64,000 nucleotides of DNA from Corallococcus exercitus (GTDB lineage: Bacteria; Myxococcota; Myxococcia; Myxococcales; Myxococcaceae), in NCBI RefSeq assembly GCF_042231735.1, contig NZ_CP102577.1, positions 2,783,281 to 2,847,280 on the forward strand, written 5' to 3'. Position numbers and translations under genes: made by a program. Shown piece after piece: positions 6,141-29,204 of the stretch. Below the pieces are notes generated by a model. That model did no database searches and was not told where the DNA came from. It was given only the letters and a program-made list of their open reading frames with translations. Position 1 is the stretch's first letter. The number at the start of each line of letters is the position of its first letter.

Positions 6141-6989
6141 TCAACCGAACCAGCGGCCGGAGTCAGGAGCAAAGACTCGCACGCGTTCGAGCAGCGCCGC
6201 CGGCAGACGGGCCTGGAGCGTCGCGTGGACCTGCGCGGGGCTGTAAGCCTGACTGAAGTGCATCAGGACCAGGGCCTCGTTCTGGAAGCGGTCCGCCATG
6301 GAGGCGATCTCCTCCAGGTGGATGTGGGCGCGCTCCTGCGCGTCGCGGACGGTGCGCTCCGCGTCGATGAACGTGCATTCGAGGATGAGCACGCGGCTGT
6401 CGAACAGGGACGGCTGGCGCTCCAGCACGTTGGAGAGGGTGTCGGTGCAGTAGGCCAGCTCCAGGCGTTCGACCTCGTCGAACAGGGGCTCACCGGCCTG
6501 GCGACGGCGGCCGATTTCAGCGGGAGGCAGCTCGCGGTACTCGGGCTTGAGCTTCGCGACGCGGCGGAGGAACTGGTAGCCCAGCGATGGCACGGGATGG
6601 TGCGTGCGGAAGGCGCGGACCCACAGGTCCTGCTGCACCTTCACGGTGTCGCCGGGACGCAGGGGAACGGTGCGGATATCGGACTTCATCCGGTGCAGGC
6701 GCCCCAGGGCCGCGAGCGCCTCCTGCACGGGCGCTTCAATCTCCGCCGGCAGGTAGACGAACGGCGGCCCCTTCCCCACGAGCGCGCGGATGCCCAGGAG
6801 CGACCCCAGCGCGCTCGCATGGTCCGCATGCCCATGGCTGAGGAAGATGCGGTCGGTGGTGGCGAAGGAGCGGATGGGGATGCCCGCGTCGAGCAGCACC
6901 CCCAGCTCCGGTACCAGGAGCGACGTGTACACGCCGCCCACGGACACACCGCGCACGGTATAGGGTCCCGCCTGCACCTCGGTCAGCAT
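6141..6989 (-). CDS. MBL-fold metallo-hydrolase (RNase Z / beta-lactamase-like)
   Basis: HxHxDH motif (LSHGHADHASALG). Start chosen at MLTEVQ with GGAG upstream; a start at 7052 is also possible. Confidence 0.75.
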   Translation of the reverse strand: MLTEVQAGPYTVRGVSVGGVYTSLLVPELGVLLDAGIPIRSFATTDRIFLSHGHADHASALGSLLGIRALVGKGPPFVYLPAEIEAPVQEALAALGRLHRMKSDIRTVPLRPGDTVKVQQDLWVRAFRTHHPVPSLGYQFLRRVAKLKPEYRELPPAEIGRRRQAGEPLFDEVERLELAYCTDTLSNVLERQPSLFDSRVLILECTFIDAERTVRDAQERAHIHLEEIASMADRFQNEALVLMHFSQAYSPAQVHATLQARLPAALLERVRVFAPDSGRWFG

Positions 6990-7027
6990 GCACGGCAGCT
7001 TATGCGGACTCCGGGAGGAAGACGTCC

Positions 7028-7828
7028 ATGCGGTTGAGCCTGCGGCGGACATGGCTTCTCGCGATCACGGTGCTGCTCCAGTCGTGTGGAGGCGCGCACC
7101 GGCGGATTCAGTACGACTTCGACAGCGCGACGAACTCCTGCAGGACCCAGCCCGCCTACTGCGCTCAGGCCGCGGGAGAGGAGGCGGTGATTCCCCGGGC
7201 CGTGCGGACGTTCGCGACAGCGGGAGGCTCCGCGGCGGCGGCCGTGAAGCTCCTGGATGCCGCGCTGAAGCAGCAGGTGAAAAAGGCGCTGGAGGAGTGC
7301 GCGGACAAGGCGCGAGCAGCGGTCATCCTCGCGAACTTCGGGACCCGAAGCCCGACGCCGCAGGAGTGCAAGGAGGAGGTCCGCGACGCACAGGGCCGGA
7401 CCATCACCCGAGCCATCAAGCTCGGAAACGAGATGCACCGGGTCGCCTTGCAGTGCGCCATGGAGAAGCTGAACGAACTCCGTCCGGGTGGTTTCAGTCT
7501 TGAGCCCACGTATCTGTATGACCTGTCCAGTGGGAAGACAACCTGGCTATCACCCGCCGAAGTGGCTCGCATCCGGCAGCGTGGCAGCCTGGGAGAATTG
7601 AAGGGGTCTCTTGTTCCCGACGTGGTCCTTCACTCGGGTGACCCGGCGTGGGTTCAAGATGTTTATGACTTCAAGTTCCCCTGTACGGATATCGACAAAC
7701 GGCCACGTTGGCGAAAATACCCACCGGGACATCCCTATGACGGCTTGACCCAGAATGAGGTCTACCGCCAGGCGTTCGGCCTGAGAGAGGTCCTTCAAGT
7801 GAATCCCTATCTCGGAGCTGGACTGTAA
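7028..7828 (+). CDS. lipoprotein with a C-terminal PD-(D/E)xK-like motif; putative polymorphic nuclease toxin
   Basis: Lipoprotein signal plus lipobox (LLQSC|GG). The C-terminus carries E..(VPDVV)..(DVYDFK), which fits a restriction-endonuclease-fold catalytic core. The gene lies in a locally low-GC stretch (~7.38-8.1 kb). Confidence 0.45.
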   Translation: MRLSLRRTWLLAITVLLQSCGGAHRRIQYDFDSATNSCRTQPAYCAQAAGEEAVIPRAVRTFATAGGSAAAAVKLLDAALKQQVKKALEECADKARAAVILANFGTRSPTPQECKEEVRDAQGRTITRAIKLGNEMHRVALQCAMEKLNELRPGGFSLEPTYLYDLSSGKTTWLSPAEVARIRQRGSLGELKGSLVPDVVLHSGDPAWVQDVYDFKFPCTDIDKRPRWRKYPPGHPYDGLTQNEVYRQAFGLREVLQVNPYLGAGL

Positions 7829-7831
7829 GTC

Positions 7832-8725
7832 ATGAGCCACTCACCACTTCAGATGACGCGTCGAGGTCGAATCGTCACGCAGGTCGGCTTGAGCCTTTGT
7901 TTTTACCTTCCCAAACCCACGTTGGACGTCAATCAGGCGGTTTCTGAATCACTGCAGACGTACCTTCACGCCATCTCGCCCCAGCCGTTCACGCACTACT
8001 CGGATGACGAGGGTGAATGGCAGGAGCTGGACGCAGCCGGCTGGGCTGTGATTCACGAGAATTTACAACAGCCGCTCAGATCAATCGTCTTGCTCACCAA
8101 CGACACCGCCTATCCCAACGGATACGAGTTTCATTACGACGGCAAGGACATCCATGCCCCCATCTTCCGTCGCGACCCAGGTCCCGTGAGCGCGGTTCGA
8201 TTTGTTCTTCCGCTGTCATGGATGAGCACCCACGGACCCGACAGCGTCCGGAAGCTGGCGCTGGCCCTGGCGGCACCGCTGCCATTCAGCTCAGGACACG
8301 CGGGACTGGCCGTCACCGGCTTCCTCGGTGTGGGCTCGGTCACATCGGAGCTGGTTCCCCAATTGGTCCAGTACCCCGGTGTCGACCTCATGGAGCTGGA
8401 TCTGGTCTCCTCGGCGATCGGCACCCGCCTGCGCGTCCCGCACTGGATGACGTTCATCGGCGAGCCTTCGCTGGGCGCCATGGGAGGCGTGGACTTCCTG
8501 CGCTCCCAGCTCCACACGCCGGGCACCACCGTGGAAGCCCTCGACGCGTCCCGGGCGGTCGTCACCCTGGGCCCTGAACCGCTCGCCGGCGGTCCGGACC
8601 AGCCGCTTCTGGCCTACCGGGAGCTGGCCCGTGTCCTGGAGCCCTGGGCCTTCCACGCCACCCAGCGTCCCGCGGACTTTCCCGACGACGACTTCTTCCC
8701 GTGGGACCGCCGGTTCCTCGACTGA
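7832..8725 (+). CDS. cytoplasmic protein of unknown function; putative cognate immunity protein
   Basis: Starts 4 nt after the stop of the putative toxin gene. No signal peptide. Its 5' half is low-GC like the toxin gene. No recognisable catalytic motif. Confidence 0.4.
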   Translation: MSHSPLQMTRRGRIVTQVGLSLCFYLPKPTLDVNQAVSESLQTYLHAISPQPFTHYSDDEGEWQELDAAGWAVIHENLQQPLRSIVLLTNDTAYPNGYEFHYDGKDIHAPIFRRDPGPVSAVRFVLPLSWMSTHGPDSVRKLALALAAPLPFSSGHAGLAVTGFLGVGSVTSELVPQLVQYPGVDLMELDLVSSAIGTRLRVPHWMTFIGEPSLGAMGGVDFLRSQLHTPGTTVEALDASRAVVTLGPEPLAGGPDQPLLAYRELARVLEPWAFHATQRPADFPDDDFFPWDRRFLD

Positions 8726-8749
8726 ACCGGCGTCCCTTCCGGGCGCGGT

Positions 8750-9817
8750 TCAGTTCTTCGCGCGCTCGTACTGGTGTGGCCACAACACGTCCGAGCGCAG
8801 CTCCTTCGCGGCGCGCAGCGGCCAGTACGGATCCCTCAGCAGCTCCCGCGCGATGATGACCAGGTCCGCCTGCCCCGTGGCCAGGATGTGCTCGGCCTGG
8901 AACGCGGAGCGGATCATCCCCACCGCGCCCGTCAGCACGCCCGCCTCCTTGCGCACCTTCTCCGCCAGGTGCGTCTGGTAGCCCGGCCCCACCGGGATCT
9001 TCGCGGACGGCACCACGCCGCCCGACGAGCAGTCGATGAGGTCCACGCCCTCCTTCGCCACCAGCCTGGCCAGCGCCACGGAGTCCTCCGGCGTCCAGCC
9101 TCCGTCCACCCAGTCCGTCGCGGAGATGCGCATGAACAGCGGCAGCGACTCCGGCCACTTCGCCCGCACCGCGCGCGTCACCTCCAGCGCGAAGCGCGTC
9201 CGGTTCTCGAACGTGCCGCCGTACCTGTCCGTCCGCTTGTTCGACAGCGGAGACAGGAACTCGTGCAGCAGGTAGCCGTGCGCCGCGTGCAGCTCGATGA
9301 CCTGGAAGCCCGCCGCCTTCGCCCGCACCGCCGAGTCCGCGAACGCCTTCACGATGCGCTGGATGCCCGCCTCGTCCAGCGCCACCGGCACGGGATAGCC
9401 CTCCTCGAAGGCCTCCGTCGTCGGCCCCAGCACCGTCCAGCCGCCATGCTCCGGCTCCACGCGCTTGCCCGCGTCCCATGGGCGGGGCGTGGAGGCCTTG
9501 CGTCCCGCGTGCGCCAGCTGGACGCCTGACGCGGCCCCGTTCTGGTGCATGAAGCGGTTGATGCGCGCCAACTGCTCCACGTGCGCGTCCTTCCACAGCC
9601 CCAGGTCCTGCGGCGAGATGCGGCCCTCCGGCTCCACCGCCGTCGCCTCCGTCAACACCAGCCCCGCGCCCCCCACCGCGCGGCTGCCCAGGTGCACCAC
9701 GTGCCACTCGTTCGCGAAGCCGTCCTCGCTCGAGTACATGCACATGGGCGAGACCACCACGCGGTTGCGCATGGTGATGTCCCGCAGCTTCAGGGGGGTG
9801 AACAGCTTGCTGCTCAT
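8750..9817 (-). CDS. NADPH dehydrogenase / NADH:flavin oxidoreductase (Old Yellow Enzyme, YqjM/NamA-like)
   Basis: OYE signature regions (MCMYSS, HAAHGYLLHEFLSP, RTDRYGG). Confidence 0.9.
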   Translation of the reverse strand: MSSKLFTPLKLRDITMRNRVVVSPMCMYSSEDGFANEWHVVHLGSRAVGGAGLVLTEATAVEPEGRISPQDLGLWKDAHVEQLARINRFMHQNGAASGVQLAHAGRKASTPRPWDAGKRVEPEHGGWTVLGPTTEAFEEGYPVPVALDEAGIQRIVKAFADSAVRAKAAGFQVIELHAAHGYLLHEFLSPLSNKRTDRYGGTFENRTRFALEVTRAVRAKWPESLPLFMRISATDWVDGGWTPEDSVALARLVAKEGVDLIDCSSGGVVPSAKIPVGPGYQTHLAEKVRKEAGVLTGAVGMIRSAFQAEHILATGQADLVIIARELLRDPYWPLRAAKELRSDVLWPHQYERAKN

Positions 9818-21168: not shown

Positions 21169-21360
21169 GGATGTCCGGGGGAGGGCAGCAGCCGCACGGT
21201 AAAGCTACAAGCCCACCAGCGGCAAGAGGACGCAATGTCTCACATTCATCCTCCTCATGTATCACCTGATACAGGCCCGCACCGTCGGTAGCAGACGCGC
21301 CTTGTCAACACTCCGTCCGCCCGCGGCGTGACTCAAAGGCAGACACCAGTCACACCTCAA

Positions 21361-21415
21361 GTTAATTCAAGAACAAGTAGAATTAATTGAATAGAAGGCT
21401 TAGTGGATGATAAAA
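21361..21415. promoter_or_regulatory. AT-rich (~25% GC) block with TTCAA...TTGAA symmetry immediately upstream of the lipoprotein gene
   Basis: gttaattcaagaacaagtagaattaattgaatagaaggcttagtggatgataaaagg. This is highly atypical for this genome. A GTATCA-cc-TGATAC palindrome lies at 21259-21272. Confidence 0.4.
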
Positions 21416-21416
21416 G

Positions 21417-22118
21417 GTGGCCATGAACTCCTCTTCCTTCTCCTCCTCCCCTGCCCCGTCCCTTTCGCGCCGGGGTGCCCTGGCGCTGCTGGGTGCGCTC
21501 GCGTTCGCACTCGCCGGCTGCCAGCCGGTCCTCTCCATCGCCGACGCGCGGTCTCGCGCCGACGGGTCGGAGGTGACGGTGCAGGGCGCGGTCACCGTGC
21601 CCCCCGGCGCGTTCGCCTCCGCCATGGGCGACGAGGGCTTCGCCATCCAGGACGACACCGGCGGCATCTACGTGAAGCTCGAGGAGAAGCTGTCCTTCGG
21701 ACTGGGGGCCCGCGTGCGAGTCACCGGCACGCTGGACGAGCAGAACCAGCTGCGCATCCTCAAGACGGTGCCCGTGGACGTGGACCTGAGGCCCGGCACG
21801 GAGCAGGTGGCGCCCCAGGACGTCACCACCGGCGGTGTGAACGAGTCCGTGGAGGGCGAGCTCATCCGCGTGAGCGGCGCCATCACCCAGGCCTTCGTGG
21901 ACGACTCGCCCTACGGCTACAAGCTCTACATCGACGACGGCACCGGCGAGGTGCAGGTGTTCGTCCACGTGTCCGCCGGGTTCGACAAGGCCGCGCTCCA
22001 GGCCCTCACCGTGGGACAGCGCATCACCGTGGTGGGGCTGGCCGCGCAGTACGAGACCACCTACGAGGTCGCCCCCCGCATGCCGAGCGACCTGGTGGTC
22101 CAGACGACCACCCCCTGA
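21417..22118 (+). CDS. lipoprotein of unknown function
   Basis: Lipoprotein signal (LAFALAGC). It follows an unusual AT-rich upstream region. Confidence 0.55.
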   Translation: MAMNSSSFSSSPAPSLSRRGALALLGALAFALAGCQPVLSIADARSRADGSEVTVQGAVTVPPGAFASAMGDEGFAIQDDTGGIYVKLEEKLSFGLGARVRVTGTLDEQNQLRILKTVPVDVDLRPGTEQVAPQDVTTGGVNESVEGELIRVSGAITQAFVDDSPYGYKLYIDDGTGEVQVFVHVSAGFDKAALQALTVGQRITVVGLAAQYETTYEVAPRMPSDLVVQTTTP

Positions 22119-27434: not shown

Positions 27435-28319
27435 CTAGGCGGCCAGCTTCTCCCCGCTGCCTTCCACGGGACGGCCGGAGAGCGCGGCGACCTCATGGTC
27501 GCTCAGCACGAGCTTCTCCTCGGAGCCGCGCCAGACGAACGGGATGCCGGGCTGGCGGTACAGGTTCGCGGGGATCTCCTGCGCCAGCTGCGCGTGCAGC
27601 TCCGGCAGCTTGGACCAGTGCAGACCGTGCCGCGTGTGATGCGCGGTGTGGTAGCCCAGGTTGCCCGTCATCAGGTTGTAGCCCTTGTGGAGGATGTTGT
27701 ACGAGGCCTCCGAGTGGTTGGCCGTCTCCAGCCCCACGTGGTGGAAGTACGTGGCCCAGGTCGTCACGTAGAGCGACGCCATCATGGGCAAGAGGAACAC
27801 GAAGAGCGCGTTGTAGGGGTTCACCCAGAACAGGCCCGCCAGCAGCACCACCTGGAGCGCGGCCATCCACACGAACACGCGCAGCGCCTTGGGGTGATGC
27901 TTCTTCCCCACCTGGAACGCTCGCGGGTACGCGGTCAGCGCCGTGCTCAGCGAGTACTCCACCTCCGCCATCGTGGAGCCGTCAGCGCGCTTCCAGCGCG
28001 ACTCGTCCTGCGTCTGGTCCAGGTAGTTCTTGTGGTGGCCCAGCACGTGGTGGAGGAACCACGCCTGCGACGTCACGCCCGTCTGGAAGCCGAAGACGAT
28101 CTCCAACAGGCGGTTGGGCAGCGCGTGCTTGAAGAAGGACAGGTGCTGGTGGTGGTGGTTCCACGAGCAGATCCATCCCTTGGGGATGATGCCCAGCCCG
28201 AACCACAGCACCGGCACCCACCAGCTGCGCGCCGTGAGGAACACCGTCACGTCGAGCGCGAACACACTCAGGAACATCAGGACCGGGATGCGATCTTCAG
28301 GGTGCCGGAACAGGGTCAT
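27435..28319 (-). CDS. small membrane desaturase/hydroxylase-like di-iron enzyme (fatty acid desaturase superfamily)
   Basis: His boxes (NHHHQH, HHVLGHH, HTAHH) and 4-5 TM helices. 294 aa. Confidence 0.75.
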   Translation of the reverse strand: MTLFRHPEDRIPVLMFLSVFALDVTVFLTARSWWVPVLWFGLGIIPKGWICSWNHHHQHLSFFKHALPNRLLEIVFGFQTGVTSQAWFLHHVLGHHKNYLDQTQDESRWKRADGSTMAEVEYSLSTALTAYPRAFQVGKKHHPKALRVFVWMAALQVVLLAGLFWVNPYNALFVFLLPMMASLYVTTWATYFHHVGLETANHSEASYNILHKGYNLMTGNLGYHTAHHTRHGLHWSKLPELHAQLAQEIPANLYRQPGIPFVWRGSEEKLVLSDHEVAALSGRPVEGSGEKLAA

Positions 28320-28478
28320 GCGCCTTCCACGACAAGAGGAGCCAAGGGAGAAATGCCGATTTTCTGACTGTAGGACGGCAGCCCCCACCCCGAACAGCCC
28401 ACCCTCGCCTGCCTGCACGTTCCACACTGACGGTAAACCACGTAGTCACGTTGAACTTGTCTTTCCATTATTCCAAGA

Positions 28479-28499
28479 ATCACAGTCCTGTCTTGTGAT
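28479..28499. promoter_or_regulatory. perfect inverted repeat ATCACA-N9-TGTGAT in the divergent promoter region between the small desaturase and the heme-oxygenase-like gene
   Basis: Seen directly in the sequence. It lies in a locally AT-richer intergenic region. Confidence 0.45.
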
Positions 28500-28541
28500 A
28501 AACGCCGACCCAGCCCTTTTGGACCCAACCTGGAGGCGGCA

Positions 28542-29204
28542 ATGCGGAACCAGACCATCGAGGCGGCGCTCGCGAAGAACCCCCACCGTGAGCAGCTCAT
28601 CAAGCATCGGTTCTTCGAGGTGGTGGATGAGAAGGCCTTCAGCCGCGACCAGGCGGAGATGGTGCTGGGGCAGTGGTGGCACCCCCTGCACTACTTCCCC
28701 GACTTCCTGAGCAAGCTCATTGCCGTCTGTCCGCAGATGGAGATGAAGACGGCGGTGACCCACATCCTGAACCAGGAGGTGGGCGAGGGAGACCCGGCGC
28801 GCGCGCACGAGCGCTTCTTCATCCAGACGATGACGGACGCTGGCTTCACGAAGGCGGGCGTGTCGGAGGCGGACATGACGCCCGCCACGCGCCGGCTCAT
28901 CGACGGCTACCAGCGCGCCACGGACAACCACCTCACCGGCCTGGGCTTCCTCTACGGCACGGAGGTGGCGGACCTCACCATGGTGGCCAAGCTGGGCAAG
29001 CTGGTGCGCCGCACCACGGGCCTCAAGGCCCTGCCCTGGGTGGACATCCACGTGAAGCAGGAGCCGGACCACGTGGAGACGGCCGGCCATACGGTGGGCC
29101 TCCAGTACACCGACGCGGAGCTGGCCACCATCACCCGCGGCGCCGAGGAGATGTGGCAGCTGTGGGTGGGATTCTTCGAGGAGCTGCGCAACCGCGTCGT
29201 CTGA
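28542..29204 (+). CDS. heme-oxygenase-like fold protein (TenA/PqqC/CADD-like iron-containing redox enzyme family)
   Basis: All-helical, 220 aa, with E/H-containing helices (EVGEGDPARAHERFF). Divergently transcribed from the desaturase. Confidence 0.55.
   Translation: MRNQTIEAALAKNPHREQLIKHRFFEVVDEKAFSRDQAEMVLGQWWHPLHYFPDFLSKLIAVCPQMEMKTAVTHILNQEVGEGDPARAHERFFIQTMTDAGFTKAGVSEADMTPATRRLIDGYQRATDNHLTGLGFLYGTEVADLTMVAKLGKLVRRTTGLKALPWVDIHVKQEPDHVETAGHTVGLQYTDAELATITRGAEEMWQLWVGFFEELRNRVV

Follow-up and report, generated by a model that had tools for sequence, protein, structure and literature searches.

A predicted lipoprotein nuclease and its TsiV-family immunity partner at a conserved hotspot in Corallococcus exercitus: a probable SitA/SitI-type toxin-immunity cassette

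A stretch of 64,000 nucleotides (nt) from Corallococcus exercitus (NZ_CP102577.1, positions 2,783,281-2,847,280; hereafter the window, in whose positions coordinates are given) carries, on its plus strand, a compact two-gene cassette between housekeeping genes. Gene 1 (7028-7828) encodes a 266-residue predicted lipoprotein and gene 2 (7832-8725) a 297-residue predicted cytoplasmic protein; only 3 nt separate the TAA stop codon of the former (7826-7828) from the ATG of the latter (7832). Both open reading frames, as well as the lipobox LLQSC of gene 1, are exactly as described in a first-pass annotation that took the pair for a lipoprotein toxin and its immunity gene. The gene 1 product is 100% identical to a C. 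exercitus "hypothetical protein" (P0001) and that of gene 2 to an NCBI entry entitled "type VI immunity family protein"; each gene is present in a single copy, with no paralogue elsewhere in the window. Our proposal is that the two genes constitute an operon for a polymorphic toxin and its immunity protein, of the SitA/SitI type known from myxobacteria, in which a nuclease would be delivered by outer membrane exchange and countered by allele-specific immunity. We consider this full reading probable; that the genes are a toxin-immunity pair is very likely. The features on which the argument draws are the following.

7028-7828, plus strand: gene 1, predicted 266-residue lipoprotein toxin (open reading frame; homologues)
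7832-8725, plus strand: gene 2, predicted 297-residue cytoplasmic immunity protein of the TsiV/DUF3396 family (Pfam, profile and fold matches)
7028-7087, plus strand: type II signal peptide ending in the lipobox LLQS-C20 (from sequence)
7088-7249, plus strand: N-terminal tether or linker, residues 21-74 (alignment, model, domain boundaries in fusions)
7250-7825, plus strand: toxin domain, residues 75-266, with a predicted PD-(D/E)xK restriction-endonuclease-like fold
7436-7438, plus strand: codon of H137, invariant, in the first core helix (residues 128-151); candidate metal ligand
7616-7621, plus strand: codons of P197-D198 ("PD"), invariant in 47 sequences, opening the strand 199-202
7667-7675, plus strand: codons of D214-F215-K216 ("(D/E)xK"), closing the strand 209-215; K216 invariant
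7751-7765, plus strand: codons of Q242-N-E-V-Y246 (QxxxY), in the helix 242-250; Q242 and Y246 invariant
7640-8240, plus strand: hypervariable low-GC core, gene 1 residues ~205-266 and gene 2 residues ~1-135, GC 56.2%
7009-8749, no strand: the whole cassette, 1741 bp, defined by junction alignment as the DNA absent from the empty site of locus L006
7013-7019, plus strand: Shine-Dalgarno sequence GGGAGGA, 8 nt 5' of the gene 1 ATG (from sequence)

Judged by its sequence and its modeled structure, gene 2 is clearly a member of the TsiV/DUF3396 immunity family. Residues 37-292, nearly the full length of the protein, align with Pfam PF11876 ("TsiV, type VI immunity for VRR-NUC", formerly DUF3396) at an E value of 1.2e-42 and with 146.6 bits, the cut-off being 25. 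A profile built from 32 myxobacterial gene 2 homologues retrieves Pseudomonas aeruginosa PA0821 (PDB 7drg; E 2.8e-10), and the AlphaFold (AF2) model, which has a mean confidence (pLDDT) of 92.3, superposes on the same structure in Foldseek with an E value of 6e-17 and a TM-score of 0.80; weaker Foldseek matches are to TsiT/Imm52 immunity proteins (E 3e-6 to 8e-5). The protein has no signal peptide. These matches bear out the first-pass proposal of an immunity gene while correcting the view that the protein lacks a recognizable motif: it belongs in fact to a named family, whose DUF3396 members are experimentally proven immunity proteins against PD-(D/E)xK type VI effectors (PMC9635880). The NCBI label "type VI immunity", when attached to the partners of gene 1-type proteins, is nonetheless misleading, and we correct it here.

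For gene 1, the AlphaFold model supports a restriction-endonuclease-like fold in residues 75-266, which are modeled at pLDDT above 93 and contain invariant candidate catalytic residues. The predicted topology is the alpha-beta-beta-beta-alpha-beta core of PD-(D/E)xK nucleases, with an Asp opening strand 2 and (D/E)xK in strand 3. Such a core had been suggested beforehand from two strings, both of which are present (V196-P197-D198-V199-V200 and D211-V212-Y213-D214-F215-K216), although not at the 17-residue spacing then given: ten residues lie between the strings, and D198 and D214 are 16 residues apart. In an alignment of gene 1 with 46 relatives (47 sequences), H137, P197, D198, V200, H202, K216, F217, C219, Q242 and Y246 are invariant, as are C91, C114 and C143, and D214 is nearly so (at least 90% of sequences). 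We take H137 to be a candidate metal ligand by analogy with RecB-type nucleases, and the H..PD..DxK..QxxxY set as a whole looks RecB/Cas4-like, presumably representing the motif set of RecB, Cas4 and lambda exonuclease rather than that of VRR-Nuc. Sequence comparisons with Pfam, NCBIfam and the PDB, made with the single protein, with 47 members and with a profile, yielded nothing meaningful for gene 1; the VRR_NUC model does not match it, no Tox-REase Pfam model does so at E up to 1, contrary to the domain type first assigned, and a Foldseek search of the gene 1 model against the PDB gave nothing significant. The best structural matches noted for the domain were Cas4 proteins.

The toxin domain also carries four invariant cysteines, C91 (7298-7300), C114 (7367-7369), C143 (7454-7456) and C219 (7682-7684). 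Since they are retained in relatives that have no signal peptide (P0375, P0370, P0376), they belong to the nuclease and not to residence in the periplasm. Cas4 holds an iron-sulfur cluster through four cysteines. By analogy, the gene 1 cysteines might form a Cas4-like metal cluster; disulfides, a zinc site and an iron-sulfur cluster are all candidates.

The N-terminus of the gene 1 protein points to export as a lipoprotein. It reads MRLSLRRTWLLAITVLLQSC followed by GG, and its signal peptide closes with the lipobox and Cys20. Gly at +2 and Arg at +7 after this cysteine provide no inner-membrane retention signal; under the rule applied to SitA1, in which outer-membrane lipoproteins have no Lys at +2 and no Ala at +7 (PMC5562445), these residues predict sorting to the outer membrane. 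A lipobox-like motif is found in 82 of 87 full-length family members, none of which has Lys at +2, and the remaining five look like start-codon miscalls. Residues 1-74 are modeled with low confidence. Within them, the segment between lipobox and toxin domain (residues 21-74; pLDDT below 55) bears a conserved motif, DSAT..C38R..PA.C45A, and is missing when the toxin domain is fused to other carriers (P0094, P0114, P0375, P0271). On these sequence grounds, residues 21-74 are the sole candidate for a delivery or escort element.

These fusions belong to a small family. A search with gene 1 found 116 homologues, all named ones myxobacterial and most of the others without a name, and an exhaustive profile comparison with 1.84 billion cluster representatives produced only 258 relatives. 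Named homologues of the lipoprotein form come from Corallococcus, Myxococcus, Pyxidicoccus, Archangium, Vitiosangium and Stigmatella, all Myxococcaceae or Archangiaceae, groups for which traAB has been reported, Corallococcus included (PMC6372800). Two family members occur per assembly in C. interemptor (P0008, P0096) and Corallococcus sp. bb12-1 (P0016, P0407). Within this family the toxin domain behaves as a module. In P0094 it follows a nearly complete SitA6 lipoprotein (91.6 bits to TIGR02269, "SitA6 family polymorphic toxin lipoprotein", whose cut-off is 85.75); in P0114, the closing part of a SitA5 escort domain (NF050093, E 4.9e-23); in P0375 and P0399 from Kiloniellales, a PAAR-like type VI domain (PF13665, E 9e-37); and in P0271, a different N-terminus of 500 residues. 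All fusions begin at about residue 75-90 of gene 1, which sets the domain boundary and makes residues 21-74 family-specific. The SitA6 type has itself been reported as a nuclease, and P0094, from a soil metagenome (locus L059, 1100-2455), is thus a single lipoprotein with two predicted nuclease modules, with a TsiV homologue downstream.

The immunity partner travels with the toxin domain. A TsiV gene was looked for in two of the three alternative carrier contexts, SitA6 and PAAR-like, and is present in both: the homologue after the SitA6 fusion P0094 is 41% identical to gene 2, and in Kiloniellales a PF11876 gene directly follows the PAAR-like toxin in a type VI auxiliary cluster that also comprises a DUF2169 adaptor and VgrG. 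Identity to the window pair is 33% for the Kiloniellales toxin domains (E 2e-18) and 25% for their immunity proteins (E 3e-34). TsiV genes also follow a Stigmatella homologue and a Myxococcus homologue, the latter at a different chromosomal site. That one immunity partner recurs with this domain in different phyla and on different delivery scaffolds argues strongly, on comparative grounds, for a toxin-immunity pair. Many Myxococcus genomes (P0378-P0391, cluster of P0041; locus L060, 4001-5706) have a gene 1 homologue and a TsiV gene that overlap by 4 nt, flanked by PLD-like and Ppx/GppA genes; the member in M. xanthus DK1622 is ABF89164.1, a "putative lipoprotein", so that this model strain already carries a family member open to genetic testing.

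Sequence variation in the cassette is concentrated where the two genes meet. In sliding-window comparisons with other Corallococcus alleles, the flanking genes are 91-99% identical and the outer parts of the cassette 85-94%; identity across the core (7640-8240) is 54-67% to loci L002, L003 and L005 and 75-82% to L001 and L004, which are of the same allele class. Nei-Gojobori estimates for the core give 1.1-1.8 synonymous (dS) and 0.3-0.47 nonsynonymous (dN) substitutions per site and a dN/dS of 0.2-0.3. The flanking genes have a dS of 0.12-0.25, about one-tenth that of the core, and the dN of the gene for the neighboring metallo-beta-lactamase (MBL)-fold protein is 0.005-0.03. Because dS is as inflated as dN, simple positive selection in situ is rejected; the pattern instead suggests old, divergent alleles that are swapped by recombination and kept in the population, not a local burst of positive selection. 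The C. caeni allele is a mosaic, 92% identical to the window over gene 2 residues 131-297 and 76% over the whole protein. A supposed orphan immunity fragment in the same species (P0139) turned out to be the C-terminal part of full-length P0124 and is not evidence of displaced alleles. On the basis of these comparisons, the core is presumed to be the specificity-determining interface between toxin and immunity protein.

The core coincides with a dip in GC content, part of the first-pass case for acquired DNA. The dip is real: 7651-8150 (54.4%, z -4.5) and 7426-8225 (56.6%, z -4.4) have the lowest GC of all 500- and 800-nt stretches in the window, whose mean is 71%. Its depth had been overstated, the GC content being 56.0% at 7850-7990 and 56.6% at 7400-8100, about 56% rather than about 50%; the lowest 100-nt value in the dip, 49%, is reached at 8046 only. 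The codon-usage comparison proposed alongside agrees: GC at third codon positions (GC3) drops to 0.65-0.69 in the dip, whereas the flanking genes have values of 0.88-0.97. Rather than the entire cassette, the dip takes in the C-terminal half of gene 1 plus the N-terminal third of gene 2. Lower GC3 in the core is common to most Corallococcus alleles and so characterizes the variable segment rather than this particular strain.

The position of the cassette is shared across the genus. We compared by tblastn 54 loci around the MBL-fold gene, 12 of them from Corallococcus, and found the pair at the same place, between the MBL-fold gene and a flavin oxidoreductase gene, in 11 of those 12. The exception, Corallococcus sp. 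RDP092CA (L006, 5978-6001), has an empty site, with 22 nt between the oxidoreductase stop and the MBL-fold gene. In the window, the cassette is bordered by the oxidoreductase stop codon (8750-8752, minus strand) and by a 19-nt spacer 5' of the MBL-fold start (6989, minus strand), and it runs antisense within a co-directional string encoding peptide deformylase, flavin oxidoreductase, the MBL-fold protein and a monooxygenase. Two pairs occur in tandem in Corallococcus sp. CA053C (L012, 2586-5909) and at L033 (2504-5889) and L036 (2432-5904), the last two of which group with Myxococcus by flank identity; the two copies of one locus differ from each other about as much as they do from the window allele, to whose genes they have 42-63% protein identity. 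In Pyxidicoccus fallax the pair lies one gene further along, and M. xanthus has no pair at the hotspot. The cassette was envisaged at first as an orphan acquired island. Its housekeeping flanks and the lack of an integrase hold, but the same hotspot is occupied in nearly all Corallococcus loci sampled and only the core is low in GC and hypervariable. No integrase, tRNA gene, terminal repeats or target duplication was found at the cassette; together with the synteny across the genus, the absence of integrase, tRNA gene and terminal repeats leads us to reject a recently acquired mobile island. As far as sequence comparison can tell, this is a long-standing hotspot and not a recent orphan island.

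The locus thereby offers a natural experiment, with near-identical flanks, empty, single and tandem states, and a sharply bounded core that marks the likely specificity residues; cognate and noncognate pairs for studying how kin-discrimination specificity is encoded are easy to pick.

Some details of the surroundings bear on expression. As called mechanically, the MBL-fold open reading frame (6141-7052, minus strand) has its start at 7052, which would make it overlap gene 1. The empty-site genome shows by comparison that the true start is the ATG at 6989 (MLTEVQAG...), so that there is no overlap, and just 38 nt separate this start from that of gene 1 (7028, plus strand). Given the antisense orientation and the tight spacing, either gene 1 and the MBL-fold gene have promoters embedded in coding sequence or transcription running on from the oxidoreductase gene would produce antisense RNA over the toxin and immunity genes. 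Promoter and terminator scans found nothing, which says little at 71% GC. The next-lowest GC stretches of the window, 21226-21425 (50.5%) and 28251-28750 (59%), are intergenic or gene-end DNA adjoining genes for a UbiA prenyltransferase, a fatty-acid desaturase and a haem-oxygenase-like protein; no toxin or immunity signatures were found in either, and both appear to be ordinary intergenic DNA.

We propose the following cycle. Gene 1 would be exported through the lipoprotein pathway by its type II signal peptide, lipidated at Cys20 and, having no inner-membrane retention signal, anchored in the outer membrane by a tether of ~55 residues. The globular domain of ~190 residues would act as a metal-dependent PD-(D/E)xK nuclease with a candidate active site made up of H137, D198, D214, K216 and Q242/Y246. 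When a neighbor with a compatible TraA receptor fuses its outer membrane with that of the producer, the lipoprotein would be handed over, and the nuclease would then enter the recipient cytoplasm and cut DNA. Gene 2, translationally coupled to gene 1, would stay in the cytoplasm and neutralize its cognate toxin by direct binding, so that clonemates are spared but non-kin carrying a different allele are not. Specificity would reside in the last ~60 residues of the toxin and the first ~135 of the immunity protein, and recombination would exchange toxin tail and immunity head jointly, with the conserved outer parts of the cassette serving as arms. Four elements of this cycle are inferred: the cutting of DNA, neutralization through binding, transfer by outer membrane exchange, and the way in which the toxin gets into the cytoplasm. 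Delivery of gene 1 by outer membrane exchange, a step drawn from analogy with SitA, is probable.

The components of the SitA/SitI type that can be recognized in the cassette are a lipobox with outer-membrane sorting, a C-terminal toxin domain, an adjacent gene for a cytoplasmic immunity protein, a myxobacterial range and multiple loci. The first-pass idea of a polymorphic lipoprotein toxin with coupled immunity of this type thus finds backing in the gene 2 family, the gene 1 fold, the modular carriers and the hypervariable alleles. Several observations weigh on the other side. A search for SitA escort domains, advised at the outset, matched gene 1 to neither of the NCBIfam models NF050093 (SitA5_escort) and TIGR02269 (SitA6) at E up to 1, and the N-terminal ~55 residues of the protein, modeled as disordered, are unlike the long SitA escort domains. 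With a dN/dS of 0.2-0.3 and not above 1, the core does not directly demonstrate diversifying selection, only old divergent alleles. Finally, the link between this family and TraA-dependent transfer is drawn by analogy.

Four other explanations have to be set against this reading. The cassette could be a selfish addiction or stabilization module that holds the locus by post-segregational killing and is not mainly an intercellular weapon. Plasmid pMF1 has a reported post-segregational killing system consisting of a lipoprotein nuclease of the SitA6 type, pMF1.20, and its partner, pMF1.19 (PMC6091211), and persistence at one hotspot across the genus would fit such a role; yet an intracellular addiction toxin does not need the conserved lipoprotein export signal, and allelic hypervariability at the interface and tandem arrays are typical of intercellular polymorphic toxins. 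We therefore regard addiction as the main function as unlikely, while noting that the two roles are mutually compatible. About equally improbable is a vesicle-borne or secreted nuclease directed at prey or extracellular DNA, from which gene 2 would guard the producer only, as barstar does against barnase. Myxobacteria are predators that shed hydrolase-loaded vesicles, and a predicted outer-membrane lipoprotein with a nuclease fold would suit that purpose. An inhibitor that protects only its producer, however, need not co-vary allele by allele with the C-terminal tail of the toxin, which is where divergence concentrates, and the same domain and immunity pair serve interbacterial type VI attack in other bacteria.

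The pair might itself belong to a type VI secretion system, as the NCBI name of gene 2 suggests. Type VI pairs served to define the immunity family (PMC9635880), and in Kiloniellales a related toxin domain is joined to a PAAR-like domain, beside VgrG. Gene 1, however, carries a lipoprotein signal peptide and lacks any PAAR, VgrG, Rhs or adaptor domain, and its immediate neighbors are housekeeping genes. Sec export is, moreover, incompatible with loading on the cytoplasmic type VI spike, and we give a type VI pair hardly any credence. Only slightly more plausible, and still very unlikely, is that gene 1 is no nuclease at all but a structural or enzymatic lipoprotein whose Asp and Lys residues and fold resemblance are coincidental, a view at odds with the modeled core and the invariance of its catalytic-type residues. 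Each of these four alternatives is less well supported than a SitA/SitI-type operon, of which we take the cassette to be a good example: a known kind of kin-discrimination system that introduces no new principle. The reading proposes a function for ~260 sequence clusters of "hypothetical lipoproteins", almost all of them myxobacterial.

How the cassette relates to characterized systems can be seen by comparison with SitA/SitI, TseV/TsiV and their relatives. The published families of SitA swarm-inhibition toxins, which are delivered through TraAB-mediated outer membrane exchange, are SitA1/2, 3, 4, 5, 6 and 7 (PMC5562445; PMC8546572), lipoprotein nucleases with a downstream sitI and many polymorphic loci per genome (PMC8546572). 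The window pair resembles them in combining a predicted outer-membrane lipoprotein and C-terminal nuclease toxin with an immunity gene immediately downstream in one operon, in having named homologues of the gene 1 form only in groups reported to have traAB, in its polymorphic alleles and several copies per genome, and in sharing its toxin domain with SitA5 and SitA6 scaffolds. It differs in having no upstream sitB, in its N-terminal region of only ~55 residues and in lying within a housekeeping gene string, not on a prophage-like element. SitA7 is described only as non-modular and as a predicted DNase that is not listed among the AHH nucleases; compared by this description, which would fit the gene 1 family, and given that M. 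xanthus DK1622 also has a member, there is a roughly even chance that the gene 1 family is the published SitA7.

With TseV/TsiV (TseV1-4/TsiV1-4 of Salmonella bongori and PA0822/PA0821 of P. aeruginosa; PMC9635880), the cassette shares the immunity family PF11876/DUF3396, a toxin in the PD-(D/E)xK superfamily and the gene order of toxin then immunity, whereas gene 1 lacks both the VRR_NUC match and the PAAR-like or type VI linkage and carries a lipoprotein signal instead. TseT/TsiT (Imm52) of P. aeruginosa is more remote: its immunity fold is distantly related and TseT is a PD-(D/E)xK nuclease (PMC9635880), but the match is much weaker than that to PA0821, the Pfam family is another and delivery is by type VI secretion. 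Closest on the toxin side are the Kiloniellales PAAR-like (DUF4150) effectors P0375 and P0399, whose toxin is homologous down to the four cysteines, PD, DFKFPC and Q..Y, and whose downstream TsiV immunity protein is likewise homologous; they differ in their type VI delivery, their DUF2169 adaptor and VgrG neighbors, the absence of a signal peptide and their alphaproteobacterial host. One nuclease/immunity cartridge is thus shared by lipoproteins of the outer-membrane-exchange kind, stand-alone as well as SitA5- and SitA6-type, and by PAAR-like type VI effectors. We raise, tentatively and at less than even likelihood, the possibility that the gene 1 family is an undescribed outer-membrane-exchange toxin family outside the six published SitA families (SitA7 being compared by description only), in which a Cys-motif tether of ~55 residues would replace the large escort domain and whose warhead and antidote would be shared with alphaproteobacterial type VI systems. 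If so, it would be a natural case in which a single toxin-immunity cartridge passes between two delivery machines that are unrelated to each other.

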